A stretch of 64,000 nucleotides of DNA, taken from contig OZ245011.1 in NCBI GenBank assembly GCA_965223665.1, positions 3,840,001 to 3,904,000 of the forward strand. The letters run 5' to 3'. Under the pieces are notes generated by a model. The model had not been told where the DNA came from, made no database searches, and worked only from the letters and a program-made list of their open reading frames with translations. The position numbers and the translations under genes were made by a program. Numbering within the stretch: the first letter of the stretch is position 1; the number at the start of each line of letters is the position of its first letter. Origin of the DNA: Nitrospinaceae bacterium. GTDB taxonomy: Bacteria; Nitrospinota; Nitrospinia; Nitrospinales; Nitrospinaceae. Below are positions 37,569 through 53,697 of the stretch, piece after piece.

Positions 37569-38321
37569 ATGTCTGTTGTTGAAGAAAAGTTTTCATCAAA
37601 GTTTGATGAGGCTGCAAGTAAACCCAAAAATCGTGGAGCATATTATCAGGAAGATGCTGCCGATAAAGGATTAGCACTAGTAGAGGCAAAATTTAAGGAT
37701 ATGAAATTATATTGGTTGGTTGATACTCAGGAAGATCGAGTATACAGTGCCAAATTCTTTGCATATGGTGGAAAAGTTTCTATAGCGATTTGTGAAACCC
37801 TTTGTTCTATGGTGAAAGGCTTAACCATTGAGGAAGCCTGTTCGCTATTAGGGGCTGATGTTGAAAATGCGCTGAGGGATTCTCCGGAGGAACCTGCTGT
37901 ACCGGAATCAAAAAAATTAGCTTTTGGAAATATTCCTGAGCTATTGAAACTTATAAAAGAAAAATATCCAGAAGCCAAAGCAATCGCATTAGCAAGTCAA
38001 TCCATTAAAGATACCGGGGTCAAACCTGCGAGTGCTAAAGAGCTTACTCTTCAAGAACAAGCATGGTTAGGTTTAAGTGAGGAAGAACAAATCCAGCAAA
38101 TAAATATAGTTTTAGATGAAAAAATTCGACCTGCACTTATGAATGATGGAGGAAATGTGCAGGTTATGGAAGTGGTTGATGGAGAAAAAATAATCATTCA
38201 ATACCAAGGTGCGTGTGGGAGTTGCGGATCTTCTTTGGGAGCTACCCTTTCTTTTATTGAGCAAACCTTGAGAAAAAGCATTTACAATGATTTGCAAGTA
38301 GTTCCTAACTCAGTTCTTTAA
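37569..38321 (+). CDS. NifU-like fusion: degenerate IscU-like N-domain plus NifU-C (Nfu) domain
   Basis: AKFFAYG..VKGLTIEEA (IscU-like) and IRPALMNDGG..YQGACGSC (Nfu); heads the suf operon. Confidence 0.8.
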   Translation: MSVVEEKFSSKFDEAASKPKNRGAYYQEDAADKGLALVEAKFKDMKLYWLVDTQEDRVYSAKFFAYGGKVSIAICETLCSMVKGLTIEEACSLLGADVENALRDSPEEPAVPESKKLAFGNIPELLKLIKEKYPEAKAIALASQSIKDTGVKPASAKELTLQEQAWLGLSEEEQIQQINIVLDEKIRPALMNDGGNVQVMEVVDGEKIIIQYQGACGSCGSSLGATLSFIEQTLRKSIYNDLQVVPNSVL

Positions 38322-38416
38322 TGATTTCTTGTTCCTCTATTGGACCTTTTTAAATAGTTTTTATTAATAGGTGCTTTCCAAAATTTCTTTCTTTATTTGA
38401 AAGAAGGAGTCTTAAA

Positions 38417-39880
38417 ATGACAGATGAATTAAATCCAAAATTGACTGATATGGATGAAGTATTGGCCAACACGGATTATAAATATGGATTTCAAACAGAA
38501 GTAGATGCAGAAGTTTTACCAAAAGGACTTAATGAAGAGGTTATTCGGACGATCTCAAAAAAGAAAAATGAACCTGAGTTCATGTTGGAATTCCGTTTGA
38601 AGGCCTATCGAAAATGGTTGACGATGGAAGAACCCAAATGGCCGAATGTTCAATATCCTCCTATTGATTACCAGGACATTTCATACTACTCAGCACCCAA
38701 GCCGAAAAAGAAACTCAAAAGCTTGGATGAAGTCGACCCTGAAATATTGCGCACGTTTGACAAATTAGGAATCCCTCTTGACGAACAGAAAAAGTTGTCA
38801 AATGTTGCCGTAGACGCTGTCTTTGACAGTGTTAGTGTCGCCACAACCCATAAGAAAAAACTGATGGAAGTGGGTATTATTTTTTGTTCAATATCTGAGG
38901 CATTGCAAGAATACCCCGAACTTGTGGAAGAGTATCTAGGTACGGTGGTACCCATTGGTGACAATTTCTACTCGGCTCTAAATAGTGCGGTCTTTACTGA
39001 TGGATCATTCGTATATATTCCACCGGATACCATCTCCCCTATGGAACTTTCCACTTATTTTCGAATTAACACTGAAGAAACCGGACAATTTGAAAGAACA
39101 TTGATAATTTGTGCTGAGAATAGTTATGTCTCTTATTTGGAGGGTTGTACTGCTCCCCAATTCGATACGAATCAACTTCATGCCGCCGTAGTTGAACTGG
39201 TTACATTGGATAATGCTGAAATAAAATACAGCACGGTTCAAAATTGGTATGCAGGCGATCCAGAAACAGGAAAAGGTGGAATTTATAATTTTGTAACTAA
39301 ACGTGGAAAATGTTTGGGAGAAAAATCTAAAATTTCTTGGACCCAAGTCGAGACAGGATCTGCGATTACCTGGAAATACCCTAGCTGTATTTTGCAGGGT
39401 GATAATAGTCAGGGAGAGTTTTTTTCTGTGGCGCTTACTAATGGATTAATGCAGGCAGATACGGGGACGAAAATGATCCATATTGGAAAAAATACGCGAT
39501 CCAGTATTATTTCGAAAGGAATCTCTGCAGATAAATCCAGTAATAGTTATCGGGGATTGGTTAAAGTTAATAAGAATGCTGAAAATGCCCGCAATTATAC
39601 GCAATGTGACAGTATGTTGGTGGGGGATCAAAGTAGTGCTCACACTTTCCCTTATATCGAAACAGCTAATAGCTCGGTTCAGCTTGAACATGAAGCCTCC
39701 ACTTCAAAAATTAGTGAAGAGCAATTGTTTTACTTTGAACAGCGAGGAATTTCTAGAGAGAATGCAATAACAGCACTAATTAATGGGTTTTGCAAGGAAG
39801 TGTTTAAACAGCTTCCAATGGAGTTTGCCGTTGAAGCAGAAAAGTTGTTGACTTTGAAGCTAGAAAATAGTGTTGGATAA
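38417..39880 (+). CDS. sufB: Fe-S assembly scaffold SufB
   Basis: [28 protein letters not shown] and HEASTSKI. Confidence 0.98.
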
Positions 39881-40106
39881 AAATTATTGGGGTTGCAGTC
39901 GCATTTAGAAATAAAAAGATTTTCGAAGCTTCAAAGCTTTTATTTAAAAAATTCGCTTAATTTTGATTTTAGGTGTGCTTTAAGTTGTTAAATTGAAGGC
40001 CAGGTAGGGAATTTCCCGAAAAAATATGCCTGGCTTCATTCATTTTATATTTGTCGATAGTGGAATAGGTGAATTCCATTGTTTGAAACATATTTGAGGA
40101 TCGAAA

Positions 40107-40856
40107 ATGCTTGAAATAAAAGATTTACATGCAGGTTTTGATGGTACAGAAATAGTTAAGGGAGTAAACCTTTCAGTGAATAGAGGTGAAATTCATGCGG
40201 TAATGGGGCCCAATGGTTCCGGTAAAAGCACCTTATCTAAAGTTTTAGCAGGCCACCCCGCTTATCAGGTGAGTAAGGGCACTGTGACTTTAGATGGGAA
40301 AGATCTTTTGGATATGGATCCAGAAGTAAGGGCTCTAGAAGGAGTGTTTATGGGTTTTCAATATCCTGTAGAAATTCCTGGTGTAAATAATGCTGAGTTT
40401 TTACGCATGGCTTTTAATGCGAAAAAAGTCCACTTGGGGGAAGAGGAGATTGATCCACTCGATTTTGATGAAATTCTTGATGAAAAAATGAAATTAGTGG
40501 GAATGGATAAGAAATATAAAAATCGATTTTTAAATGAAGGTTTCTCTGGGGGAGAAAAAAAGAAAAATGAAATCTTACAGATGGCTATTTTAGAACCTAA
40601 ATTAGCAATTTTAGATGAGACAGACTCTGGATTAGACATTGATGCTTTAAAGGTAGTGGCTGAAGGAGTGAATAAACTAGTAAACCAAAACAACGCGTTA
40701 ATTTTGATCACCCATTATCAGCGCCTCTTAAACTATATTCAACCGGACTTCGTCCATGTTTTTAGCCAGGGCCAAATTATAAAGTCCGGTGATAAAGGTT
40801 TGGCTAAAGAATTAGAAGCCGAAGGTTACGATAAATTAACTGCTGCTGCTAAGTAG
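40107..40856 (+). CDS. sufC: Fe-S assembly ATPase SufC
   Basis: GPNGSGKST, FQYPVEIPGV, FSGGEKK and LDETDSGLD. Confidence 0.98.
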   Translation: MLEIKDLHAGFDGTEIVKGVNLSVNRGEIHAVMGPNGSGKSTLSKVLAGHPAYQVSKGTVTLDGKDLLDMDPEVRALEGVFMGFQYPVEIPGVNNAEFLRMAFNAKKVHLGEEEIDPLDFDEILDEKMKLVGMDKKYKNRFLNEGFSGGEKKKNEILQMAILEPKLAILDETDSGLDIDALKVVAEGVNKLVNQNNALILITHYQRLLNYIQPDFVHVFSQGQIIKSGDKGLAKELEAEGYDKLTAAAK

Positions 40857-40866
40857 GAGAAATAGA

Positions 40867-42180
40867 ATGACGGGCTCAATGGCAGATTTAAAGCAAACAC
40901 AAGAAGCAGAAATCATTGATTTATTTAAAAAAATTAAACCCTCCGATAGTTTGCAGGAACTACGAGAAGCAGCTATTCATCGATTTGAGGCTTTAAAGTT
41001 TCCACACAAAAAACATGAAATGTATACGTTTGCCAATGTGAAGGAGTTGGCTACCACCTCTTTCGTTTTGGCAAAAGAAGGGCCAATAGATTCAAAATTA
41101 ATTTTAGATAATGTGTACCCGTCTTGTAAAAATAGCTTTATTGTTTTTGTGAATGGATTTTTCCATGAGGGGCTGTCAAATATTTCTTCAATGGGAACTT
41201 CAATAAAGTTAATTGATTTAAATTCGGCGACTTTAGATAAAACTTTGCATTCCTATTTATTAGAAACAAATTCTAATGAAAATGATGTGTTTGCTACTTT
41301 AAATGGGGCTTTTTCTAATGGTGGATTACTTGTTGATGTTGCCGAAAACGCTACCTTTGAACAACCGTTACAAATTGTTTATGTTTCCCATTCCTCATCA
41401 CCCCAACCAATGACTTCACATCCACGTTTATTGATTCGACTTGGGAAATCAGCAGAGTTGAAGTTGATTGTTAAATTCTTAGGATGTGGAGAGAAGTATT
41501 TTGTGAACTGTGTTCAAGACTTTTTAGTTGAGGAAAATGCAGGTCTTACTTATTCGCAAATTCAACAGGATAATGCAAATGCTTGGCATTGCTCTAAAAC
41601 GCGTGCCAACATAAAAAGAAATGGTCGGTTTATTTCTTCTAATGCATCCTCCGGAAACCGTTTGACCCGGCACCATTATGAAGTCCATTTAAAAGATGAG
41701 GGAGCTGAAGCCCAACTGAATGGAGCTTCTGTTTTGATAAATGAAGAACAGGTTCATAACTTTGTTCGCATTCATCATGAAGCGCCTCATTGTACGAGCC
41801 AGCAATTATTTAGAAATGTTATTAATCATAAAGGGCGTTCAAGCTTTGATGGAACGGTGATCGTCAATAAAGGGGCGCAACTAACATATTCTGATCAATT
41901 AATAAATAACTTAATGCTTTCAGATGAAGCTCATGCAGATAATAAACCTAATTTAATGATTTTTGCAGATGATGTGAAATGTACTCACGGAGCAACCGTT
42001 GGGCAAATTGATGAGGATCAATTATTTTATTTGAAAACTCGAGGACTTTCCGAGGAGTTAGCGCAATCTTTGCTTACTAAAAGCTTTGTGGAAACGGTTA
42101 TACAAACAATACCTTTTCCCGAAGTTCGGGAGGACCTGGATGATATTTTATTGAAAAAATTGGAGGCCAATCATGGCTGA
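40867..42180 (+). CDS. sufD: Fe-S assembly protein SufD
   Basis: KPNLMIFADDVKCTHGATVGQID..LFYL.TRG; operon position. Confidence 0.95.
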   Translation: MTGSMADLKQTQEAEIIDLFKKIKPSDSLQELREAAIHRFEALKFPHKKHEMYTFANVKELATTSFVLAKEGPIDSKLILDNVYPSCKNSFIVFVNGFFHEGLSNISSMGTSIKLIDLNSATLDKTLHSYLLETNSNENDVFATLNGAFSNGGLLVDVAENATFEQPLQIVYVSHSSSPQPMTSHPRLLIRLGKSAELKLIVKFLGCGEKYFVNCVQDFLVEENAGLTYSQIQQDNANAWHCSKTRANIKRNGRFISSNASSGNRLTRHHYEVHLKDEGAEAQLNGASVLINEEQVHNFVRIHHEAPHCTSQQLFRNVINHKGRSSFDGTVIVNKGAQLTYSDQLINNLMLSDEAHADNKPNLMIFADDVKCTHGATVGQIDEDQLFYLKTRGLSEELAQSLLTKSFVETVIQTIPFPEVREDLDDILLKKLEANHG

Positions 42181-43426
42181 TGCAGATACAACCACTCTGG
42201 TTTCGGGGTTTGAGGTAGATAAAATTCGTAGTGAATTCCCTGTGCTTTCACAAAAGGTTAATGATAAACCCCTAGTTTATTTAGATAATGCGGCTACTAC
42301 TCAAAAACCCTGGCGGGTAATCAACCGAGTCCATAAGTTTGATTCTGAAGAGTATGGAACTGTGCGTCGCGGAGCTTATAGGGTAAGTGAAAGATCGACC
42401 CAGTTATATGAAGATGCACGACAAAAATTGGCAGACTTTCTAGGGACACCGGATCGCAAAGAAATTATTTTTACTAGTGGTACGACACAGTCGATAAATT
42501 TAGTGGCTCATAGTTATGGTAAAAAATTTGTAGAGTCTGGGGATGAAGTTATTATTTCTACTATCGAACACCACGCAAATACGGTTCCCTGGCAAGTTTT
42601 ATGTGAAGAAAAGGGTGCGAAATTAAAAGCAATCCCAGTAAACGACCGTGGCGAATTGATAATGGAAGAGTATGATAAGTTATTGACGAATCGTACTAAG
42701 GTAGTTTCCGTTAACCATGTTTCAAATGCATTGGGAACTATTAACCCTATTAAAGAAATCACTGATAAGGCCCAAGCTGTAGGCGCCAAGGTATTAATTG
42801 ATGGAGCGCAAAGTGCTCCTCACATGAAAGTGAATGTGAAAGAATTGGGTTGTGATTTTTATACATTTTCCGGACATAAAATGTATGGTCCCAGTGGCAT
42901 CGGAGGCCTTTATGGAAAAATGGAAGTGTTGGAGTCTATGATTCCTTATGTAACTGGCGGTGATATGATTCGCCAAGTTACCCTGGAAAAAGCAACTTAT
43001 GCGGATCCTCCTGCGCGATTTGAAGCTGGAACGCCACCAATTTCACAAGTTATTGGCCTTGGAGAAGCAGTTGATTATTTACAGGAAATTGGATTAGATA
43101 AAATAGCTGAATATGAGAATAGTTTATTAGAATATGGAACCCGACTGTTTGAAGACATTGGGGGATTAAATATTATTGGAACGGCAGAAGAAAAGGCGAG
43201 CATAATTTCTTTCCATTCAGATGTAATACATCCTCATGATATGGTTACATTATTGGATCAAGATGGAATTGCTGTAAGAGGGGGGCATCATTGTGCTCAA
43301 CCGACCATGCAAAGATTTCAGGTTCCGGCCACCTCTCGGGCGTCGGTATCTTTTTATAATAAATTTGAAGAGCTTGATGCTTTAGCTGAGAGCGTTCAAA
43401 AAGCGATTAAACTTTTTTCAGGATAA
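42173..43426 (+). CDS. sufS: Group II cysteine desulfurase SufS
   Basis: YLDNAATTQKP, EHHAN, SGHKM and RGGHHCAQP. Confidence 0.96.
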   Translation: MADADTTTLVSGFEVDKIRSEFPVLSQKVNDKPLVYLDNAATTQKPWRVINRVHKFDSEEYGTVRRGAYRVSERSTQLYEDARQKLADFLGTPDRKEIIFTSGTTQSINLVAHSYGKKFVESGDEVIISTIEHHANTVPWQVLCEEKGAKLKAIPVNDRGELIMEEYDKLLTNRTKVVSVNHVSNALGTINPIKEITDKAQAVGAKVLIDGAQSAPHMKVNVKELGCDFYTFSGHKMYGPSGIGGLYGKMEVLESMIPYVTGGDMIRQVTLEKATYADPPARFEAGTPPISQVIGLGEAVDYLQEIGLDKIAEYENSLLEYGTRLFEDIGGLNIIGTAEEKASIISFHSDVIHPHDMVTLLDQDGIAVRGGHHCAQPTMQRFQVPATSRASVSFYNKFEELDALAESVQKAIKLFSG

Positions 43427-43500
43427 TAACGACTATTTTTTAGATATTGAAATAGTGGTAAAACAAGTTTTTTTGGAGTTGATTGAAAAGGAATTAAATT

Positions 43501-43953
43501 ATGTCCTATGATAATGAGCTTTACCAACAGGTGATTCTGGATCATAACAAAAAGCCGAAAAATTTCCGTGATATGGAAGATGCTACTCATTCCTGTCATG
43601 GATTCAATCCGCTTTGTGGAGATGATTATACTGTTTACCTTAAGGTCGATGGCCAAAACATTATTCAGGATATTAGTTTTATGGGATCAGGATGCGCTAT
43701 ATCTAAGGCAAGTTCTTCATTAATGACCAGTTTTTTAAAAGGAAAACCTATTGAGGATGCTAAAGTTGTCTATGAAGAGTTTCACAAGATGGTATTAGGT
43801 GAATTTGATCCTGAAAAAGAAGAGAATCATTTGGGAAAACTAAAATTGTTTATGGGGATACGAGAATTCCCCTCACGAATTAAGTGCGCTAGTTTGTCAT
43901 GGCATTCTATGGTTGGCGCTTTAAATAAAGACGATAAGGTTACAACGGAATAA
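43501..43953 (+). CDS. sufU: SufU-type sulfur transfer protein
   Basis: LYQQVILDH, NPLCGD, GCAIS and RIKCA; follows sufS. Confidence 0.92.
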   Translation: MSYDNELYQQVILDHNKKPKNFRDMEDATHSCHGFNPLCGDDYTVYLKVDGQNIIQDISFMGSGCAISKASSSLMTSFLKGKPIEDAKVVYEEFHKMVLGEFDPEKEENHLGKLKLFMGIREFPSRIKCASLSWHSMVGALNKDDKVTTE

Positions 43954-43998
43954 TTTGAAGATTTAACTTCTAAATATCACCCCATCAAAAGGAGGTGG

Positions 43999-45069
43999 GT
44001 GATTAACACACCGAACGCACAATCCTTGTTAGATCAATCCACCCGGTCGGGTGATTTGTCCATCCCTTTAAAAAATAAATCACTCATTTGCACAGCTTGT
44101 GGGCATCGTTGTGAATTAAAGCCTGGAAAGCGAGGGGTTTGTAAAGTCCGGTTTAATGAAGAGGGTGTTTTAAGAGTTCCTTTTCAATATACAGCAGGAT
44201 TGCAGAATGATCCAATCGAGAAGAAACCCTTTTTTCATGTTTTACCAGGAAGTGATTCGCTAAGTTTTGGAATGTTGGGTTGTGACTTTAAATGTGGGTA
44301 TTGTCAAAACTGGTTTACCTCGCAAACTTTAAGCGATGAAGCTTCAACAGTAAGCTTCAACGCAATTACCTCCAATGAAATTTGTGACGTAGCGGAAAAG
44401 CATAAAGTAAAGACAATAATTTCTACTTATAATGAACCATTAATTACAAGTGAATGGGCTGTAGAGGTATTTAGAGAAGCGCGAACACGCAATTTTCTAA
44501 CCGGCTACGTTTCTAACGGTCACGGAACGCCCGAAGTGCTTGAATATATAAAACCTTGGTTAGATATAATTAAAATCGATTTAAAATGTTTTGATAAAAA
44601 TAAATATAGGAAATTGGGTGGGGGGTTGGATCAAGTATTGGAAACTATTCATTCGGTAAAAAGTATGGGATTTTGGTTGGAAATTGTTACCTTAGTGATT
44701 CCTGAATATAATGACTCAAACTCAGAATTAACCAAAATAGCGAAATTTATTGCTTCAATTTCTCCTGACATCCCTTGGCATGTAACCGGTTTTAATCCTC
44801 AATATAAAATGTTGGATAAAAGAAGTACCGAAATTAACCATTTAGTGAGGGCAAGGGATATCGGTATGAGTTTCGGGCTTCATTATGTTTATGCCGGAAA
44901 TAGGCCGGGCATGATTAAGAATGCAGAGGATACATTTTGTCCTAGTTGTAAGAGAACTTTAATTAAGCGTTTCGGATTTCGCGTTTTGAAAAACTATTTA
45001 ATCAATGGAAGATGTCCGCATTGTTTTTACTCCATTCCGGGGGTTTGGAGTAAAAATTTTCTAAAATAA
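43999..45069 (+). CDS. AmmeMemoRadiSam-system radical SAM enzyme
   Basis: N-terminal CTACGHRC..C, DPIEKKPFFH, CDFKCGYC, TYNEP and C-terminal CPSC..CPHC. Confidence 0.9.
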   Translation: MINTPNAQSLLDQSTRSGDLSIPLKNKSLICTACGHRCELKPGKRGVCKVRFNEEGVLRVPFQYTAGLQNDPIEKKPFFHVLPGSDSLSFGMLGCDFKCGYCQNWFTSQTLSDEASTVSFNAITSNEICDVAEKHKVKTIISTYNEPLITSEWAVEVFREARTRNFLTGYVSNGHGTPEVLEYIKPWLDIIKIDLKCFDKNKYRKLGGGLDQVLETIHSVKSMGFWLEIVTLVIPEYNDSNSELTKIAKFIASISPDIPWHVTGFNPQYKMLDKRSTEINHLVRARDIGMSFGLHYVYAGNRPGMIKNAEDTFCPSCKRTLIKRFGFRVLKNYLINGRCPHCFYSIPGVWSKNFLK

Positions 45070-45426
45070 GAGAGAAATGAAAAGTGGTTCTAATTCTTAA
45101 CCTTCAAAAAATGTTTTGTAATAATAAGATTCCTGTTTCGCCTCTTCAAGATACTCGCTTTGTAAAACCAAATTTTATAATCAATTAGAAAATTTTGGTT
45201 TCCTCGGTTTGATTTTCTGTTTAGTTGTGTCGCTAAAAATGTTAAGGTTGTTTCCCCGCCTTTTGCAGGCCTTATAAGGCTATTCAAAATTTTGGGAACT
45301 TATTCGAGGTTTTCTGTTTTGAGGCTGTATAAAAAATGGATGGGCGGGTTTCTTCATTTTATTGATTGAGTCCGATAGAAAATTTCTGATAAAAAAATGA
45401 TTTTGATTGAAAATAAAATAAGGAGA

Positions 45427-47145
45427 ATGGGAAGTTTTAAAAGTTTGATTTTTGCTTGTGTTTTAATTTGGGTTTCATCAAATGCATTTGGACAAACTAA
45501 TGTTCCGCCAGCTGGGGAATCGGGCGTAATTGAAAAATCCCTGCGGTCTTCTCGTCCACAGTTTCAATCACCTGAGAAAGATATATCAAATATAATAAAA
45601 AATGATAGCCGAAAGGTTGAGGATCCTGGAGCCGGACCGCGTTTTTTTGTTGAAAAAATTCAGGTTCAAGGAAATACTCTGTTTTCCGATCAAGAATTAG
45701 CTCCTTTTGTAAACTTAGGTGGCACGGTAGAAGTTACTTTAGGAGTTCTGACCTTAATTGCCAATGAAATTACCGCCTTTTATGTTTCCAAAGGCTATAT
45801 TTTATCTTTTGCCTATATTCCTCCTCAGGAAATTGCTAATGGGGTGGTCCTTGTCCAAATTGTAGAATCAAGGATTGGCAAAATAGAGGTGCAAGGGAAT
45901 GAAAGATATACTGACGGCGAGATTTTGTCTTGGATGGAACAAGTACAAAAAGAGCGGGTTTTAAGTGAGCAAACTCTAGAACGAGCTTTACTTGATTTGA
46001 ATGATATATATGGGCTAAAAGTGCAATCCATTTTAAAACCCGGTGATAAAACTGGAACTTCCGATTTAGTTTTAAAAATTCAAGAATCAAAATCCTTTAA
46101 ATTTGAATTTGATGTAGATAACTTTGGTTCTCGATTTACAGGTCGACATCGATTTGGTTTAACTGCTTCTATTGACAATTTAGGATTGTTTGGAGACTCA
46201 TTCTCTATTCGGGGTTTAAAGTCCGAAAACAATCAAAATTATATTAATGCTAATTATTCTGTTCCAGTTTCCAATTATGGAACGCGGGCCAACTTTTCCT
46301 TTATATATTCTGACTTTGTATTAGGAGATTCGTTGAGCATTTTAAATGCTGAAGGGACATCAAATCTCATTTTGTTTGATATTACCCAAAAGATACATCG
46401 TTCTCGAAGATCCGAATTGTACATTTCAATCGGAGGTGAAATTAGAAACTTTAAAAATAGCCAAGCTAATAATCAAACCAGCAACGATAAGTTAAGAGAT
46501 ATATTTTTGGGATTAGGAGGAAATTGGTCTGATGGATTGTTTGGAAGGACTTTTTATGATATTCGACTTCAATGGGGTTTTACTGAAGGAAATATTGCGG
46601 ACCCACTTAACTCTCGATTTCATGGCAGAGGAGATGTTTTGATTTCCAGCTTTTCTTTTCAAAGATTTCAATCCATAAAAATTTTTAATTCATACTTTGT
46701 GATTAGGGGGAAGGGACAAATTGTTGCCAATCGGGTATTATCACCGGATCAGTTTGCTATTGGTGGTTTTGGAACAGTGCGTGGTTTTCCCCTGGCTGAA
46801 AATGCTGGTGACAATGGATTTACTTTTTCCTGGGAGTATGTATTGCCTTTTCCTGTAAAAATTCCTTTAACTTCTAAACCAGGTTTAAAAAGTTTGAATG
46901 AAATACTTTCGTTGTTTGGCTTTATTGATCACGGTCAGATTTTTGTCAGAAATAAACAGCCTGGAGAAATTAATAGTGAATTAACCGGCGCGGGCGGAGG
47001 CATTCGCGTCAATATTCCGAAAATAGATTGGCTTTTTCCTCAGATTAGTATAACCGCCTCCTATGGCTTTCCTGTTTTTACAAATAATGACCCCTCCGAT
47101 GGTTCTTCATCTACATTTTATTTTGCTGGTTTGATTTCCTTTTAA
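45427..47145 (+). CDS. ShlB/FhaC/HecB (TpsB) two-partner secretion outer-membrane transporter
   Basis: Signal peptide, POTRA-like regions (Y..KGY..A.IPPQEI..G), DNFGS..TG, VRGF motif and terminal Phe. AGGAG RBS precedes ATG 45427. Confidence 0.93.
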   Translation: MGSFKSLIFACVLIWVSSNAFGQTNVPPAGESGVIEKSLRSSRPQFQSPEKDISNIIKNDSRKVEDPGAGPRFFVEKIQVQGNTLFSDQELAPFVNLGGTVEVTLGVLTLIANEITAFYVSKGYILSFAYIPPQEIANGVVLVQIVESRIGKIEVQGNERYTDGEILSWMEQVQKERVLSEQTLERALLDLNDIYGLKVQSILKPGDKTGTSDLVLKIQESKSFKFEFDVDNFGSRFTGRHRFGLTASIDNLGLFGDSFSIRGLKSENNQNYINANYSVPVSNYGTRANFSFIYSDFVLGDSLSILNAEGTSNLILFDITQKIHRSRRSELYISIGGEIRNFKNSQANNQTSNDKLRDIFLGLGGNWSDGLFGRTFYDIRLQWGFTEGNIADPLNSRFHGRGDVLISSFSFQRFQSIKIFNSYFVIRGKGQIVANRVLSPDQFAIGGFGTVRGFPLAENAGDNGFTFSWEYVLPFPVKIPLTSKPGLKSLNEILSLFGFIDHGQIFVRNKQPGEINSELTGAGGGIRVNIPKIDWLFPQISITASYGFPVFTNNDPSDGSSSTFYFAGLISF

Positions 47146-47342
47146 TTTCCCTGAATTCAATATTTTTTACGCCTTGGATAAAATATCGGTGATTATGAGA
47201 ATTTTTCATAATTTGATCTTAAATCCCAAAAAACAAACCCTAATGGGGTATTTATTCTGATAAATGGTAAAATTGCTTTACTTTTGTTGGGTAAGTTCAT
47301 AATATCTACAAGGTAAATCTAATTTATGGATAAAGGCTATCC

Positions 47343-48167
47343 ATGCAAAATCTTTCCATTATAAGAAAATACCTAATCTTTTTAGCCTCAATCTCAGTTT
47401 ATATTTTTTTTGGGGGTTTGAGCCTAGCCCATTCTGAAGAAAAATCCATCGGCAAAATAATAGCTATTATTGGCCAAGCAGAGTTTATTAATGAAACAGC
47501 AGAAGTAACTTCTGAACTTAAAGGTGGTTCGATAAAAAAGGTTTCCTCTCCGATTTGGCAGAAAGTGATTCCCCATCAAAAGGTTTTTCCTCAAGATGTA
47601 TTTAGAACCTCAAAGAAAAGTCGGCTGAGAATTCTTTTTAACGATAGTAGTTTAATGGCATTGGGACCTAGTACAAAGATGAAAGTCTCTTCATATATTG
47701 TTAATTCAGAAAAAAAGTTTCGAAAAGGTGTAATGGATTTAGCGCATGGGCTTTCAATGTATATTGTTAATAAACAGCATAAAAGTGAGGGCTCCTCTTT
47801 CAAAATGGTATCACCCACTGCAAATATTACTGCAAGAGGAACTCAAGGGTATTTAAGTGTGTCTAAACAAAAGACTCTAGTGGCAAATTTAGCGGGAGCT
47901 GTTTCTGCAGAAAATTCTGATCCAGCTGTTACTGGGGAAGTTTTAGTCGGAATCAAGGAAAGCTCTATAGTTGAGAAAGGCAAACCTCCTACAGAACCAC
48001 AGCCTATTCGTAATGTAGAATTACAGTTTCTACAGCAAACGGTTATGGGTTGGCCTAATCCAAAAATAGATGAAGAATCAAATGGGGATTCAACTTTAGA
48101 GGAAGCTTTTGAGGAAGATTTTGAGCCGTTTGATGATATTGATAGCAATTCTTGTAAATCAGGATGA
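47343..48167 (+). CDS. Exported FecR-domain protein
   Basis: Signal/TM, then D.FRT..SRL.I.F.DSS..LG..T and SPTANITARGT; acidic tail ending SNSCKSG. Confidence 0.85.
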   Translation: MQNLSIIRKYLIFLASISVYIFFGGLSLAHSEEKSIGKIIAIIGQAEFINETAEVTSELKGGSIKKVSSPIWQKVIPHQKVFPQDVFRTSKKSRLRILFNDSSLMALGPSTKMKVSSYIVNSEKKFRKGVMDLAHGLSMYIVNKQHKSEGSSFKMVSPTANITARGTQGYLSVSKQKTLVANLAGAVSAENSDPAVTGEVLVGIKESSIVEKGKPPTEPQPIRNVELQFLQQTVMGWPNPKIDEESNGDSTLEEAFEEDFEPFDDIDSNSCKSG

Positions 48168-48171
48168 ACAT

Positions 48172-50439
48172 ATGCGTAAGGGGAGAAAAGTGAAACTTAT
48201 TCCATTCAAAATATCTAACTTTATTCTTTTGGGATGGTTATACTGCGTTTTTTCAATTTTCCCTTCTAAAATTTATGCGCTTCCTTCGGGGGGAAATATT
48301 ATCCAGGGAGAAGGTTCTATTCGACTACCCTCCGCCCAAGAATTAAATGTTCAACAAAATTCGCAAAAGTTAATTGCCGAATGGAACTCTTTTGGAATTG
48401 GGGCTACAGAATCAGTACGGTTTATTCAGCCCAATGCAAATTCAGTTGCCTTAAATAGAGTGATAGGTAGTGACCCGAGCCAAATTTTAGGAAAGTTATC
48501 AGCAAATGGACAAGTATTTTTGGTCAATCCTTCAGGAGTCTATTTTGGGCCAAACTCTATTGTGGATGCCCACGGATTTATTGGATCTACTTTAGATCTT
48601 AGCAATCAGGATTTTTTCGATGGTAATTATACCTTTATCAAAAATCCCTCAAAACCTCTGGCTTCTATTATTAACCAAGGGGAAATTAAAGCAGGGGCAT
48701 ATGCCGGCCTTGTAGCTCCTGCAATTTCAAATGGGGGAAAAATTATTGTAGCTGATCTGGGAACAGTGGCTTTAGGGGCGGGAGAAGCAGCTGTTTTAGA
48801 TTTCAATGGAGATGGCTTAATAAACTTTACCATCACCCAACCAGTATTAGGAGAAGTTCCAGATAATAATGGAATTTTATTACCAAATAGGATCTTAAAC
48901 TCCGGTCAAATTCAGGCAAATGGAGGACAAGTTCTTTTAATGGCTAAGGAAGCTGGAAATATAGTACGTGATGTTGTTAATCATTCAGGAATAATTGAGG
49001 TCAACTCAGTTGTTAAAAAAAATGGACGGATTGTTCTATCAGGTGGAGAAAAGGGTATTGTTAATGTTTCTGGAACCCTCAACGCTATAGGAAATAATAT
49101 TGATGAAAATGGTGGCCATATTACCATTGAAGGTGAAGAAATAGGATTGTTTCAGTCAGCAATATTGAATGTTGCTGGAATGGCTAGTGGTGGAATGATT
49201 AATGTGGGTAAAGGTTCAAATGGAACTATCAATGCTCCCACAGCTAAAAATGTTTATATAGGTGAAAATGTTCAAATGTTAGCCAATTCATTATCATTTG
49301 GGGAAGGTGGAATAGTCGGCCTTTATGCCGCGGATACGTTACGCCACTATGGGCAAATTAATGCTGCGGGAGGTCCTTTGAATGGGAATGGTGGAACCGT
49401 AATTAATTCTGGAAAGCGTTCTATCGAGATCAAAAATGCTCCCGATATTAGTACAAATAATGGTTCGGGCGGGGATTGGTTAGTAATTGATGCAGATGTA
49501 ATTGAAATTTTACCAGGAAAAGGAGTATTTGATTCTGGTGGCGACCCCTTTGGGAATATTGAAGATGGATTGAAATTTGGGGCTGATTTAATTCTAGATG
49601 CTTTTGATGAAGGTTCAACTGTATTTATTGCAACAGGTTTTTTGGGAAAGAAAGAAAATGGTAGTCTCTTTTTGAATGCTCCAATTGATTTCACAGGCAA
49701 AGGGCCAAATTCTTTAATTTTAGGTGCCAGGAAGCATATTTTCTTAAACGAAAGTATATTTACACCTGGTAAAAACTTTAATGACCGATTAAATGTAACT
49801 TTATTAGCCAATACTGATGAGGGAATAATAGGTTCCTTCTATTTGAAGGAAGGTAAAGTTGTTGATTCGAATAATAGAGATATCTGGATAAGAGGGGCAG
49901 ATTTTCATTCGAGGGGATTATTAAAAAGTGGAACGGCACGGGTAGTTATTCGAACTCGCGGAATTAATAGAATGTCTATAGGAAATGGAACTAATAATCC
50001 TGGATTTACCATAGATAATGACGAACTGAGCAGAATTATGGCTGATAGGGTAATCTTTGATAGTTTGGGTAATATTTATATTGATGGGGTCCAACAAAAT
50101 TCAACCAATTCTATTAATCAATTATTATTCTTTTCTGGCGAAAAAATTGTAACTCAAGGTGAAAAATCTTCTTTTACCCCTGGGGTGGAATTAAATGCTC
50201 GTGATAAGATTGAAGTTAATGCTGATTTAGAAGTCCAGGGGGACTTGGTTGCCAATGTGCAAGTAGGAGGAGTTGAAGTAAGTGAAGACGTTTCTGTGGA
50301 GGCTGTCAATTCACAATTTAACGAAAATGGTTCCGGGAATTCTTTGAGCTTTGAAGAAAGAGAATTGGTGGAGCAAGGTAACTTAAGTACTTTTATAAAA
50401 GAATTTCTGGAAAATGGAAAAACTTTTAACGATTGTTAA
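48172..50439 (+). CDS. Filamentous haemagglutinin-like TpsA exoprotein (about 755 aa)
   Basis: Signal peptide, then LPSGG, W.SF.I, F.QP..VALNRV, NGQVFLVNPSG (TPS domain) and Gly/Asn/Ile beta-helix repeats. ATG 48172 follows an AGGA at the fecR stop. Confidence 0.9.
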   Translation: MRKGRKVKLIPFKISNFILLGWLYCVFSIFPSKIYALPSGGNIIQGEGSIRLPSAQELNVQQNSQKLIAEWNSFGIGATESVRFIQPNANSVALNRVIGSDPSQILGKLSANGQVFLVNPSGVYFGPNSIVDAHGFIGSTLDLSNQDFFDGNYTFIKNPSKPLASIINQGEIKAGAYAGLVAPAISNGGKIIVADLGTVALGAGEAAVLDFNGDGLINFTITQPVLGEVPDNNGILLPNRILNSGQIQANGGQVLLMAKEAGNIVRDVVNHSGIIEVNSVVKKNGRIVLSGGEKGIVNVSGTLNAIGNNIDENGGHITIEGEEIGLFQSAILNVAGMASGGMINVGKGSNGTINAPTAKNVYIGENVQMLANSLSFGEGGIVGLYAADTLRHYGQINAAGGPLNGNGGTVINSGKRSIEIKNAPDISTNNGSGGDWLVIDADVIEILPGKGVFDSGGDPFGNIEDGLKFGADLILDAFDEGSTVFIATGFLGKKENGSLFLNAPIDFTGKGPNSLILGARKHIFLNESIFTPGKNFNDRLNVTLLANTDEGIIGSFYLKEGKVVDSNNRDIWIRGADFHSRGLLKSGTARVVIRTRGINRMSIGNGTNNPGFTIDNDELSRIMADRVIFDSLGNIYIDGVQQNSTNSINQLLFFSGEKIVTQGEKSSFTPGVELNARDKIEVNADLEVQGDLVANVQVGGVEVSEDVSVEAVNSQFNENGSGNSLSFEERELVEQGNLSTFIKEFLENGKTFNDC

Positions 50440-50506
50440 AATATCTTTTATAAAATTTTAATGGTAAATGATTGAATCCTTCCTATTTTTAAAGTATTAA
50501 TTCTAA

Positions 50507-52735
50507 ATGAAAAAGTGGTGGTTGAATCCCTTAACAATTTCTGTATTCATCACTTTAATTTCCTTATCCATTTATAGATTAGACTTTTTCTTTTTTCGCT
50601 TACTTGAGTTAAAAGCTTATGACTTTCTTATGTCCACACGCGGAGTCCAACCCGTTTCGGATAAAGTAGTCATAATTTCGATTGATGAAAAAAGTTTAAA
50701 GCAAGAAGGACGATGGCCATGGCCAAGAACGCGATTAGCAAAGCTGGTTGATCGTTTGGTAGAAAACAATGTTTCTGTAATTGGGATCGATCTTCTATTT
50801 CCTGAAAAGGATGATCATGTTTCCTATAATGAATTTCTATCCAATTTAAAAAGTCAAAAGTTTAAACGGAAGGATGCGGATGAAATAATTGATTGGGTTG
50901 TTAATTTAGAACATGCGGATCAACAGTTTGAAACATCATTAGAACAATCAAATCGTGCCGTGTTAAGTTATTTCGTATATTCTTCTAAAGAACAGGCCGG
51001 GAACCACGTATTGCCCCTAAGTACAAAAGATTTTAACTTGTTGGATTTTTCCCAGTACCCTTTGGTGAAAAAAGAAAAAAATAGTGATCCTTCAGCTTAT
51101 CTAAGATCCATTTATGCTGTTGGAATGTCTTTACCAATTCTGATGAAAGCAGCGAATAGCGCAGGTTTTGTTTCTTTCATCCCGGAGCATGATGGGGTAA
51201 TCCGAAGAATTCCACTAATTCAGATCTATAAAGATTATCTGTTTCCTCCATTTAGCCTTCAAGTAATAAAAGAAGCTACCAGTTTGAATTTATTTGCTCA
51301 TCTTCTCCCGCAAAGGGTAGGAGAAATTTCATTAGGGGGAAGGTTAATTCCCGTATCCGAGGAAGGAGATTTTTTAATAAATTTCTTTGGTCCCAATAAA
51401 ACATTTTCTCATTATTCAGCTACTGACGTTTTACAAAAAAAAATCAATCCCAATAATTTAAAAAATAAAATTGTATTAATTGGTGCGACAGCCACCGCAA
51501 TTCATGATTTGCATACCACTCCTTTTGGCCCCTTAATGCCAGGAGTCGAGGTCCATGCTAATGTTATTGAGAATATTTTATTTGATAAATTTATTCGAAG
51601 ACCTGCTTGGGTTCCTTTGTTTGATGCCGCGATGATTTTAGCACCAGGGTTATTAATTGGCGCTTTTGCCTTATCCCTAAAAGCATTTGGAACAGCCGTT
51701 CTCTTAATTTTTGGTTTAATTGGTTTTTGCACCCTGGATTTTTATCTGTTTTGGATGGAAGGACTATGGGTTAATACTGTATACCCTATTTTTTCACAGT
51801 TATTTGTTTATTTTGGGATCACTTTGTATCGCTTCGCTTTTGAAGAAAAAGAAAAGCGATTTATAAAGGAAGCTTTTAGTCAATACCTTGCGCCTACGGT
51901 AGTTGATCGTCTTGTAAAAGACCCTTCCTTATTAAAGCTAGGTGGAGAGCGGCGGATCATCTCTGCATTTTTTTCGGATATTGCTGGGTTTTCGAGTATT
52001 TCTGAAAGGATGTCCCCTGAAGATTTGGTGGATTTATTAAATTTATATTTAACTGAAATGACACAAGTATTAATGAAGCAGGAAGGTACAGTTGATAAGT
52101 TTGAGGGAGACGCCATTATTGCCTTTTTTGGAGCTCCGATTTCTTATAAGGATCATGCCAAACGGGCCTGTTGGGCCGCATTGGAAATGCAAGGTCGTTT
52201 GAATGAACTTCGAAAACGTTGGAAGGAGGAAGGTAAACCTGAGCTTTTTATGCGAATTGGAATCAATACTGGCACTGTTGTTGTAGGGAATTTAGGATCT
52301 AAAAGTCGCATGGATTATACAATGATGGGGGATTCAGTTAATCTTGCTTCTCGACTTGAAGGAGTAAACAAACAATACCATACAGAAATTATTATTAGTC
52401 AATTTACATATGAAGAAGCCAAAAACCATATACAGGTTCGGCAGTTGGACTTAATTCGTGTGATCGGTAAACAGCAGCCCATAAAAATTTATGAGTTATT
52501 AGGGAAAAAAGATGAAATGAAAGAAAGTATAAGAAAAATTCTTCCATTTTATAATGAAGGATTGCGTCATTATCAAAACCAAAATTGGGAGGAAGGAATT
52601 GAATGTTTTGAGAAAGCGCTTAATATCGATGAAGACGATGGTCCTGCATTAACCTACTTCGAAAGATGTTTAACATTTCAAATGCATCCACCACCAAAAA
52701 ATTGGGATGGTGTGTTTACTATGCGAAATAAATAG
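50507..52735 (+). CDS. CHASE2-domain class III adenylate cyclase with a C-terminal TPR-like tail
   Basis: IDEKSL..GRWPWPR, DGVIRR and GVEVHAN (CHASE2); 3 TMs; FSDIAGFS, DKFEGDA and GDSVNLASRLE. Confidence 0.93.
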   Translation: MKKWWLNPLTISVFITLISLSIYRLDFFFFRLLELKAYDFLMSTRGVQPVSDKVVIISIDEKSLKQEGRWPWPRTRLAKLVDRLVENNVSVIGIDLLFPEKDDHVSYNEFLSNLKSQKFKRKDADEIIDWVVNLEHADQQFETSLEQSNRAVLSYFVYSSKEQAGNHVLPLSTKDFNLLDFSQYPLVKKEKNSDPSAYLRSIYAVGMSLPILMKAANSAGFVSFIPEHDGVIRRIPLIQIYKDYLFPPFSLQVIKEATSLNLFAHLLPQRVGEISLGGRLIPVSEEGDFLINFFGPNKTFSHYSATDVLQKKINPNNLKNKIVLIGATATAIHDLHTTPFGPLMPGVEVHANVIENILFDKFIRRPAWVPLFDAAMILAPGLLIGAFALSLKAFGTAVLLIFGLIGFCTLDFYLFWMEGLWVNTVYPIFSQLFVYFGITLYRFAFEEKEKRFIKEAFSQYLAPTVVDRLVKDPSLLKLGGERRIISAFFSDIAGFSSISERMSPEDLVDLLNLYLTEMTQVLMKQEGTVDKFEGDAIIAFFGAPISYKDHAKRACWAALEMQGRLNELRKRWKEEGKPELFMRIGINTGTVVVGNLGSKSRMDYTMMGDSVNLASRLEGVNKQYHTEIIISQFTYEEAKNHIQVRQLDLIRVIGKQQPIKIYELLGKKDEMKESIRKILPFYNEGLRHYQNQNWEEGIECFEKALNIDEDDGPALTYFERCLTFQMHPPPKNWDGVFTMRNK

Positions 52736-52746
52736 GGAGAGATTAT

Positions 52747-53118
52747 TTGTTTTTTGGTGAATATTTGGTGCAGCAAAAAATTATAAGCGAGAAGGATTTA
52801 GCTTTTGTATTAGATACTTTAGGGCAAAATAATAAGGTTCCTTTAGGACAATTAGCCGTTCAAAACGGTTGGCTAAGCCGAAAGGAGTTATTTAAAATTC
52901 TATCTGGGCAAAGAAAAGATAAAGATGTTAAGAAGAATTTTGGGACGCTTGCAATTGAATTAGGTTTTATGAATCAAACCCAAATTGATAACTTATTAAA
53001 AATGCAAGCTCAATCTCATCAGATGCTTGGGGAATATTTGCTTTCCAAAGAACTAATTAATAGAAAGAAATTAATTCAGTCTTTGCGTGCCTATAGATTA
53101 TTTTTGAATAACTTATGA
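52747..53118 (+). CDS. Small protein built from four MshEN/T2SSE_N-like helical repeats
   Basis: Repeats FFGEYLV, PLGQLAV..G, NFGTLAI..G and MLGEYLL. TTG start with a GGGAG RBS, 11 nt after the cyclase stop. Confidence 0.65.
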   Translation: MFFGEYLVQQKIISEKDLAFVLDTLGQNNKVPLGQLAVQNGWLSRKELFKILSGQRKDKDVKKNFGTLAIELGFMNQTQIDNLLKMQAQSHQMLGEYLLSKELINRKKLIQSLRAYRLFLNNL

Positions 53119-53220
53119 TCTTCTTTTGTGGAAGTTTATTAGACATGTATAATAAGTCTCTAATTATTTTATAGCTCGGTTATTTGGCAATAACTTCATT
53201 CAATTGGAAATATATAGATT

Positions 53221-53697
53221 ATGAAAAATAAAAAACAAGTTGGGAAAGCTCTAGGGAAGGTGCCTAGTGGATTATTTATTGTAACTACTGCGTATAAAGA
53301 TCAAGAAGATGCCGTATTGGCAAGTTGGGTTAATCAAACCTCATTTAATCCTCCAGCTGTAACCATTGCTTTAGCCATTACGCGTTCAGCACGATTGCAA
53401 ATTGAAGCATCCAATGCTTTTATCATAAACATTTTGGGTAAAGAATCTAGTGCCCTTATGAAACATTTTTTCCAACCCCCCAAACCTGGAACTTCAATTT
53501 TTAAGGGGCTGAAAGTAAAGAAGGGTTTTCAGGAAATAAAGGTTTTGAATGAATGTATTGGGTATTTGGAATGTAAAGTAATCAATCAAACTATTGCAGG
53601 AGACCATGTGGTATATGTGGGAGAAATTGTTGGAGGAAATATCTTAAAAGGGGGGGATCCTTATGTGCACATTAGGGATAATGGATTTAACTATTAA
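53221..53697 (+). CDS. Flavin reductase-like (flavoredoxin-type) protein
   Basis: ALGKVPSGLFIVT, ASWVNQTSFNPP, LEC and GDHVVYVGE. Confidence 0.88.
   Translation: MKNKKQVGKALGKVPSGLFIVTTAYKDQEDAVLASWVNQTSFNPPAVTIALAITRSARLQIEASNAFIINILGKESSALMKHFFQPPKPGTSIFKGLKVKKGFQEIKVLNECIGYLECKVINQTIAGDHVVYVGEIVGGNILKGGDPYVHIRDNGFNY

Follow-up and report, generated by a model that had tools for sequence, protein, structure and literature searches.

We analysed a 64,000-nucleotide (nt) stretch of a Nitrospinaceae bacterium genome (contig OZ245011.1, positions 3,840,001 to 3,904,000), hereafter called the window. It carries the gene order tpsB-FecR-tpsA-CHASE2 cyclase, tightly spaced and all on the + strand. 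The products are an Omp85-type transporter (TpsB), a protein with a FecR domain (FecR), a two-partner secretion (TPS) exoprotein (TpsA) and a predicted CHASE2 receptor cyclase. FecR and mature TpsA each carry a lone cysteine at or near the C-terminus, and this pattern is a strongly conserved, module-specific feature, far from chance. The best explanation, which we consider somewhat probable, is an intermolecular disulfide between FecR and TpsA, that is, a cysteine hook split between the exoprotein and its putative periplasmic partner.

The earlier note on this DNA had pointed out a single cysteine in the 274-aa FecR, fourth from the end, and a single cysteine in mature TpsA, as its last residue. 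Both observations were borne out. FecR ends in ...DDIDSNSCKSG, with Cys271 as its only cysteine. TpsA ends in Cys755, and its other cysteine, Cys25, lies within the hydrophobic stretch of the signal peptide (about residues 1-36; ...LLGWLYCVFSIFPSKIYA/LPSGG). Such ends are rare in the source genome: among its 2042 open reading frames (ORFs) of at least 250 aa, 139 (6.8%) have a cysteine within the last eight residues and 15 (0.7%) end in cysteine.

The FecR subfamily was searched at E-values up to 1e-25 and was found in 33 of 120 Nitrospinota genomes (by family: f1, 14/20; f2, 12/70; f3, 5/6; f4, 1/5; f5-f9, 0/18). We compared 38 + 9 genomic and 45 metagenome loci, all of the related ones from one Nitrospinota order, and classified their ORFs against the four window proteins. 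Duplicates were removed from the tail counts by the last 100 residues. The TpsB-FecR-TpsA order was found again in related loci, with FecR homologues 36-86% identical to that of the window. A cysteine stood 2-7 residues from the end in 70 of the 71 distinct complete FecR tails, third-last in 43 and fourth-last in 23. In the lone exception (L227), the stop codon falls within the low-complexity linker, 89 nt short of a contig end. Every mature FecR of the main genomic locus set contains exactly one cysteine. The tail follows the motif [DE]-[FY]...F-[DE], then 6-9 residues, the cysteine and 1-6 further residues, and the surroundings of the cysteine diverge completely between subgroups while the cysteine stays.

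A large protein collection gave the same picture. The terminal cysteine was present in 28/28 close FecR relatives. Profile matches with E-values up to 1e-30 had a cysteine in the last eight residues in 32 of 46 cases, including the fragment P0063 and the chimera P0066, and most of the remaining matches were visibly truncated. Distant FecR-domain proteins (E-value above 1e-30) end in Pro-rich tails; 12 of 104 have a terminal cysteine, either in unrelated multi-Cys contexts or in a near-subfamily fragment. Since the distant proteins mostly lack the terminal cysteine, the motif belongs to this FecR subfamily and not to FecR domains generally.

The TpsAs encoded next to FecR (linked TpsAs) range from about 530 to 5329 aa. 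When ORFs with a stop codon were considered, 35 of 43 distinct linked TpsAs ended in cysteine, and none of the other eight was a clean loss. The cysteine is penultimate in L048. In the frameshifted tpsA genes of L058/L224, L062, L221/L240 and L234, the next frame ends in ...GC-stop. The TpsA of L065 without a terminal cysteine is the first half of a split gene, the second half of which ends in cysteine, while the tail is masked in L050 and the gene lies 98 nt from a contig end in L222. The tails of three very long linked TpsAs (2120, 3792 and 5329 aa) were fetched separately, and 3/3 end in cysteine. One giant TpsA (L164) was missed by phmmer with the default bias filter and was recovered by a genome search and direct translation. 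In an alignment of 33 TpsA tails, the mean column identity was 19% and the terminal cysteine was the sole invariant column. Both terminal cysteines hardly vary in FecR-linked pairs, although identity elsewhere is 13-50%, and the check for their co-occurrence in homologous loci, for which the earlier note had asked, was strongly positive.

These alignments also bear on the idea that the cysteines are incidental passengers of conserved terminal motifs, with tails that interact non-covalently or not at all. Other tail residues are indeed conserved, namely aromatic and acidic ones in FecR and an amphipathic helix in TpsA. However, the positions of the motif next to the TpsA cysteine vary, the FecR cysteine is kept in 70/71 tails despite divergent surroundings, and the frameshifted tpsA genes still keep a Cys-ending tail in the next frame. 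We therefore regard passenger cysteines as extremely unlikely.

Two further features of linked tpsA genes were seen. First, the genes are repeatedly split by frameshifts at differing positions (L058/L224, L221/L240, L234, L062 and L065), with the Cys tail kept downstream; the frameshifts could be assembly errors in repetitive beta-helix DNA or phase variation. Second, mini-TpsA genes of 122-142 aa occur at L038:2374-2799 (genome G018), L047:651-1016 (G019) and L208:1520-1891. An in-frame internal deletion has removed the middle of each, leaving the signal peptide, about 30 residues from the beginning of the TPS domain and the final 60-75 residues, Cys tail included; the junctions differ between L038 and L047. 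Only fragments of tpsB remain in L038, beside an intact FecR gene and cyclase gene, and L047 lacks the cyclase as well. If these mini-TpsAs are real and not assembly artefacts, they suggest that secretion is not needed for the tail to act in the periplasm.

We then compared TpsAs without a FecR neighbour. Of 50 tails fetched from related genomes, 36 were assessable after three FecR-linked, three of unclear linkage (contig ends), six cut and two masked ones were set aside. The three of unclear linkage (G025:C47 twice, G025:C7) end in cysteine and are orthologues of FecR-linked TpsAs. With seven more tails from related genomes and four from the source genome, 47 unlinked TpsAs were assessable, and 0/47 had cysteine as the last residue. 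The classical two-Cys hook, with the cysteines 7-13 residues apart, was present in 4/47. Three of these hooks are in the source genome, in TpsAs of 744, 3046 and 3784 aa (G000:C1:2583490-2585721, 1119808-1128945 and 1060882-1072233, all on the - strand). The fourth unlinked TpsA of that genome (1660 aa, C1:4215759-4220738) has no terminal cysteine, and the only one-Cys TpsA there is the FecR-linked one.

A TPS-domain tree of 65 rows was built with a quick IQ-TREE run. All 41 FecR-linked rows (41/41) fell within one 52-row clade (SH-aLRT 100), whose other eleven rows are unlinked and sit among the linked ones. FecR linkage and the single terminal cysteine were concordant in 50/50 assessable rows, with four changes each, in the same places. 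The nested unlinked TpsAs end in ...TITDTSF, ...LTDKSE or ...LNDTSAP, or with a two-Cys hook.

Among the unlinked proteins are giant TpsAs of 3566-8814 aa (L111, L114, L115, L174 and L175), whose TPS domains are nested in the FecR-linked clade and which share the Cys-free ending ...G-T-[IT]-x-L-x-D-x-S-[FE]. The giant TpsA of G106:C18 has neither tpsB nor FecR within 4.9 kb upstream.

The other proteins of the module offer no alternative partner. The only cysteine of the window TpsB is residue 21, in the signal peptide, and no conserved mature cysteine was seen among 38 homologous TpsB ORF segments (a sporadic CC pair in three loci, a single cysteine in one). The window cyclase has cysteines at 408, 555, 700 and 721, none of them in the periplasmic CHASE2 part, which is Cys-free in the 17/17 homologues covering it. 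The periplasmic CHASE2 part, TpsB and the small ORF 52747-53118 behind the cyclase were thus ruled out as partners of a lone cysteine, as none has a conserved cysteine. Any further cysteines of linked TpsAs are closely paired (CxxxC, Cx5C, Cx6C), so that only the terminal one is unpaired.

The envelope itself appears suited to disulfide formation. Three ORFs of the genome belong to the DsbA family; they have signal peptides and the motifs CPYC, CGHC or CPFC. Even cysteine counts outnumbered odd ones among exported proteins (222 vs 168), as selected by a crude home-made signal-peptide rule, whereas non-exported proteins showed 885 even and 986 odd (Fisher p 5.5e-4). This even-Cys bias is a signature of disulfide formation in the envelope, and, because of it, two conserved lone cysteines in one module would most simply be partners.

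Structure models placed both cysteines in flexible ends. The AF2 model of FecR has a helix at 4-25 (signal peptide), a beta-sandwich at 37-211 (pLDDT above 90), a helix at 224-235 and a disordered tail at 239-274 (pLDDT below 50) that contains Cys271. Across genera, the segment linking the sandwich to the Cys peptide differs in length, from about 20 to 200 residues; it is acidic, Gly/Ser/Lys-rich and of low complexity (alignment columns about 320-520), and is a plausible periplasm-spanning tether. The best solved match to the FecR model in Foldseek was the C-terminal cell-surface signalling domain of PupR (6ovk_R, E-value 6.8e-07, TM 0.40/0.51). Further matches were 4m0h/4m0n (E-values about 1e-06), and a Bacteroides anti-sigma factor domain was among the best. 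The model of the last 160 aa of TpsA shows a beta-helix to about residue 123 (pLDDT above 90), helices at 132-140 and 143-156 (pLDDT 55-65) and four disordered residues ending in the cysteine.

A complex prediction for FecR residues 33-274 with the last 160 aa of TpsA gave weak support, with a score of 0.56 against 0.00 for the best of three controls. At least 44% of contacts were shared between the runs, with a partner pLDDT of at least 74. In calibration, which holds roughly here as custom alignments were used, the mark was reached by 116/157 solved complexes and 2/215 mismatched pairs; at scores of 0.60 or under, only 18/157 solved complexes pass, together with both of the passing mismatches.

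Several points weigh against a FecR-TpsA disulfide, the support for which is wholly comparative. Predictions that pass in the score range just given are wrong more often than right, except where the guess was likely beforehand. The earlier note had expected the two cysteines to be lost together, and all transitions in the TPS tree were concordant, but the independent ones are few, two on well-supported branches and four on all (sign test p 0.5). This falls short of demonstrating joint loss statistically, and because of the small number, much of the association between the FecR and TpsA cysteines is shared descent. The natural TpsA-FecR fusions that the note had suggested looking for did not turn up in trustworthy form: no fused protein was found among proteins of 481-2000 aa, which is weak evidence by the search tool's own terms. 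The profile-search match P0066 (303 aa) joins a mid-FecR piece to a TpsA C-terminal region ending in ...KPNC. Since it begins inside the FecR domain, we read it as a deletion or an assembly chimera and did not use it as evidence.

The gene content of some loci points in the same direction. L166 (G106:C50) and its metagenome twin L232 have TpsB, FecR and the CHASE2 cyclase, and tpsA is absent from the 252-nt gap (6431-6683 in L166), with FecR still ending in ...TGCTS. No Cys-tailed TpsA was found elsewhere in the G106 genome (92% complete). Sister contigs with the same FecR tail type (L228, L230 and L242/L243) do have tpsA after FecR, and thus the loss in L166/L232 is recent and local. Several loci have two tandem TpsAs per FecR (e.g. 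L065, L069 and L070), and therefore the stoichiometry at the gene level is not 1:1. In addition, DsbB and VKOR families were not detected in the source genome, and the data come mostly from metagenome-assembled genomes with frameshifts and contig breaks.

In a rival reading, each lone cysteine makes a homodimer. A disulfide between two FecR molecules would suit a class III cyclase, which is dimeric, one between two TpsAs would join a pair of fibres below two TpsB pores, and the co-occurrence would then reflect shared descent of the operon type. The cysteine parity would be met just as well, the FecR cysteine of L166/L232 would need no TpsA, tandem TpsAs would pose no difficulty, and only a few independent transitions separate both traits. 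However, two separate reasons would be needed for two terminal cysteines confined to the same module, and a single terminal cysteine occurs in none of the 47 unlinked TpsAs. The conserved motifs beside the two cysteines differ, which is unexpected for self-pairing alone, and the heteromeric prediction, weak as its support is, exceeded its controls. We consider homodimers unlikely.

Alternatively, the cysteines could be functional thiols outside any disulfide, serving jointly or separately in metal binding, in redox or electrophile sensing for the CHASE2 pathway, or as sites of covalent modification. The lack of detected DsbB and VKOR families and the flexible tails, predicted to be exposed, are consistent with this, and the CHASE2 ligand is described as unknown in the available extract of PMC5192318. 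On the other hand, free envelope thiols should be rare given the even-Cys bias and the DsbA homologues, neither cysteine is accompanied by a His/Cys-rich metal motif, and loci that lack a CHASE2 protein conserve the pair just as well. This alternative is very unlikely in our judgement.

We propose the following mechanism for the FecR-TpsA disulfide. The four genes would form a two-partner secretion module plus a third, periplasmic partner. TpsA would be exported by Sec and then threaded out through TpsB with its C-terminus last, and its final 25 residues (amphipathic helix, short Gly-rich spacer and terminal cysteine) would remain in the periplasm. In that compartment, the tail would reach the flexible C-terminal end of FecR, itself a soluble protein, and periplasmic oxidoreductases would join both lone cysteines as an intermolecular disulfide. 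The FecR beta-sandwich (~180 residues) would be too large for the TpsB pore and would act as a stopper, doing the job of the intramolecular disulfide loop in HMW1, HxuA and CdrA.

A related possibility is that the disulfide is transient. FecR would then serve in the periplasm as a holdase or checkpoint: it would trap the C-terminus of TpsA in a mixed disulfide during secretion and let it go later, by reduction or exchange, so that TpsA is freed. The paired-Cys pattern would be the same, a variable, flexible FecR linker would suit a mobile carrier, and the cyclase-free loci described below show that the pair serves secretion, not signalling. However, no dedicated reductase or isomerase was conserved in the loci examined, and the parallel with the two-Cys hooks of the paralogues points to stable anchoring. 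We regard a transient disulfide as quite unlikely.

The earlier note had coupled TpsA to the cyclase. This is plausible for the window and does not hold generally. The f3 genomes have four to six FecR matches each, and their TpsB-FecR-TpsA modules, sometimes with two tandem tpsA genes, have no CHASE2 gene nearby; the neighbours are TIR-Sel1, PBP, TPR and other genes. Because these loci carry the three genes without CHASE2, the Cys pair belongs to the three-gene secretion module, with the cyclase as an addition in part of the clade, the window included. Where the operon encodes the CHASE2 cyclase, the FecR domain would be the likely contact to the CHASE2 sensor. The closest solved relative, the PupR domain, binds an outer-membrane protein domain in its crystal entry. 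Whether the surface fibre is present, pulled, cleaved or reduced could, through such a contact, be signalled to cyclic AMP (cAMP) synthesis. Such a covalent outside-in relay, in which a TpsA fibre is tied by the disulfide through TpsB to a FecR docked on CHASE2, and pulling, cleaving or reducing it alters cAMP, is tentative and rather doubtful.

Gene order is variable among the metagenome contigs L238, L235, L241, L227, L239 and L244, with the cyclase before tpsB-FecR or with tpsA on the opposite strand after FecR. The TpsA at L238:2923-5283 (-) among them still ends in cysteine (...GGNNC). The source genome also has a second CHASE2 cyclase paralogue (G000:C1:911200-913425, E-value about 1e-303 to that of the window) without tpsB, FecR or tpsA beside it. 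A 1192-aa protein 4 kb downstream of this paralogue (G000:C1:917326-920901) has a weak FecR match (E-value 3e-09) and no terminal cysteine.

The features of the module are collected in Table 1. TpsA qualifies as a two-partner secretion exoprotein, with a TPS domain (Pfam PF05860, residues 57-303, E-value 2.6e-33, 116.5 bits vs a cut-off of 33.5), a cognate TpsB and a beta-helical C-terminal part. We prefer ATG 48172 as the likelier tpsA start, because it lies 4 nt past the FecR stop with AGGA ahead, and because the TTG start at 48109 given by the ORF finder, which we disfavoured, overlaps the FecR tail. The cyclase, with Pfam matches to CHASE2 (residues 17-371, E-value 4.7e-66), Guanylate_cyc (485-663, E-value 4.1e-25) and TPR_2 (E-value 5.5e-06), fits a CHASE2 receptor class III cyclase by its predicted periplasmic CHASE2 part, membrane spans and Guanylate_cyc domain.

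Table 1 Features of the tpsB-FecR-tpsA-cyclase module in the window.
Feature	Position	Strand	Evidence
tpsB, Omp85-type TpsB transporter, 582 aa	45397..47145	+	Pfam ShlB E 5.6e-26, POTRA_2 E 1.3e-18, POTRA E 1.5e-08
FecR-domain putative periplasmic protein, 274 aa	47343..48167	+	Pfam FecR (PF04773) E 4.1e-10, 40.4 bits, cut-off 24
FecR C-terminal peptide AFEEDFEPFDDIDSNSCKSG with lone Cys271 (codon TGT, 48153-48155)	48105..48164	+	
tpsA, 755 aa: signal peptide, TPS domain, beta-helix, C-terminal helix, terminal Cys	48172..50439	+	
TpsA C-terminal tail ELVEQGNLSTFIKEFLENGKTFNDC; final residue Cys755 (TGT 50434-50436, then TAA)	50362..50436	+	
CHASE2-transmembrane-class III adenylate/guanylate cyclase-TPR protein, 742 aa	50507..52735	+	Pfam matches

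Upstream of tpsB, at 37569-45069, lie a SUF Fe-S assembly operon (NifU, SufB, SufC, SufD, SufS and NifU_N) and a radical-SAM gene. Around three homologous f3 loci that were scanned (L063, L066 and L069), other gene families were found, and the SUF/radical-SAM adjacency does not look conserved. Downstream of the cyclase are a small ORF and a flavin reductase gene, and, on the opposite strand, TPR/FGE-sulfatase and BatA/VWA genes. None of the flanking genes looks related to the module. The small ORF (52747-53118, 123 aa) is Cys-free and matches no Pfam family above its cut-off. A homologue also lies behind the mini-TpsA in L047, where the cyclase is missing, and the ORF may belong to the conserved neighbourhood. 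A promoter and terminator scan of 44900-53300 gave sites no more numerous than in shuffled sequence and was uninformative.

Our literature search found no description of a FecR-TpsA-TpsB-CHASE2 arrangement or of such an intermolecular disulfide. FecR and a TpsA/TpsB pair have reportedly been treated together in one study, on the transcriptional control of PdtA by a cell-surface signalling system. To our knowledge, the C-terminal disulfide loops known to retain TpsA proteins all act in cis. As far as the available extract of PMC5422565 goes, HMW1/HMW1B and HxuA/HxuB of Haemophilus influenzae resemble the proposal, as a bulky, disulfide-dependent C-terminal anchor stays in the periplasm and locks TpsA in TpsB. 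There, however, both cysteines are in TpsA and form an intramolecular loop, and the known anchor involves no third protein. The window TpsA lacks the two cysteines in the last 20-30 residues that define an HMW1/CdrA-type hook.

CdrA/CdrB with LapG/LapD of Pseudomonas aeruginosa are similar in that the adhesin, a TpsA, is retained in its TpsB pore through a cysteine hook at its C-terminus (extract of PMC13405001) and that its retention is tied to a cyclic-nucleotide pathway via a periplasmic partner, LapG, which cleaves the CdrA tail (extract of PMC5422565). Unlike here, the hook is in cis, the partner is a tail-cutting protease, and the signalling runs inside-out from cyclic di-GMP. In the window locus, where no LapG-like gene was seen, the partner has a FecR fold and a predicted CHASE2 adenylate cyclase is the enzyme of the nucleotide pathway.

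The FecA-FecR-FecI and PupB-PupR-PupI systems share the FecR-fold periplasmic domain, which there touches a protein of the outer membrane and passes a surface event on to the inside. Unlike FecR and PupR, the window FecR has no N-terminal anti-sigma domain or membrane anchor; a cleavable-looking signal peptide is followed by the beta-sandwich. No extracytoplasmic function (ECF) sigma/sigma-70 or TonB-dependent transducer family was found among the neighbouring ORFs scanned, and the window FecR is not classed as a FecR-type sigma regulator. In the window module, unlike Fec/Pup, TpsB/TpsA would be the partner in the outer membrane, and a cyclase would give the output.

Genes for secreted FecR-domain proteins lie repeatedly next to those for CHASE2 sensors, according to the extracts of three papers (PMC5498481, PMC5192318, PMC9239204). 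Examples are CyaD1 of S. meliloti, with SMc02177 and the NsrA pathway, the BiofilmReg system of Burkholderia and a Campylobacterota cAMP cluster. The S. meliloti CHASE2 cyclases answer an external protein signal via an outer-membrane beta-barrel protein (extract of PMC13001267). Unlike the window, these descriptions, in the extracts available, mention neither a TpsA/TpsB pair nor terminal cysteines.

If a FecR-TpsA disulfide is formed, a type Vb system would, with the split hook, have an obligatory third component, and TpsA retention would become controllable via a separate protein, through its abundance, redox state or receptor binding. If the relay also holds, CHASE2 would gain a defined protein input, and a two-partner secretion system would serve for mechanical or redox sensing, not for the export of adhesins or toxins. 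The locus may thus offer a concrete, testable entry into CHASE2 receptor activation, because the partner has the FecR/PupR signalling fold and is often encoded with a CHASE2 cyclase.

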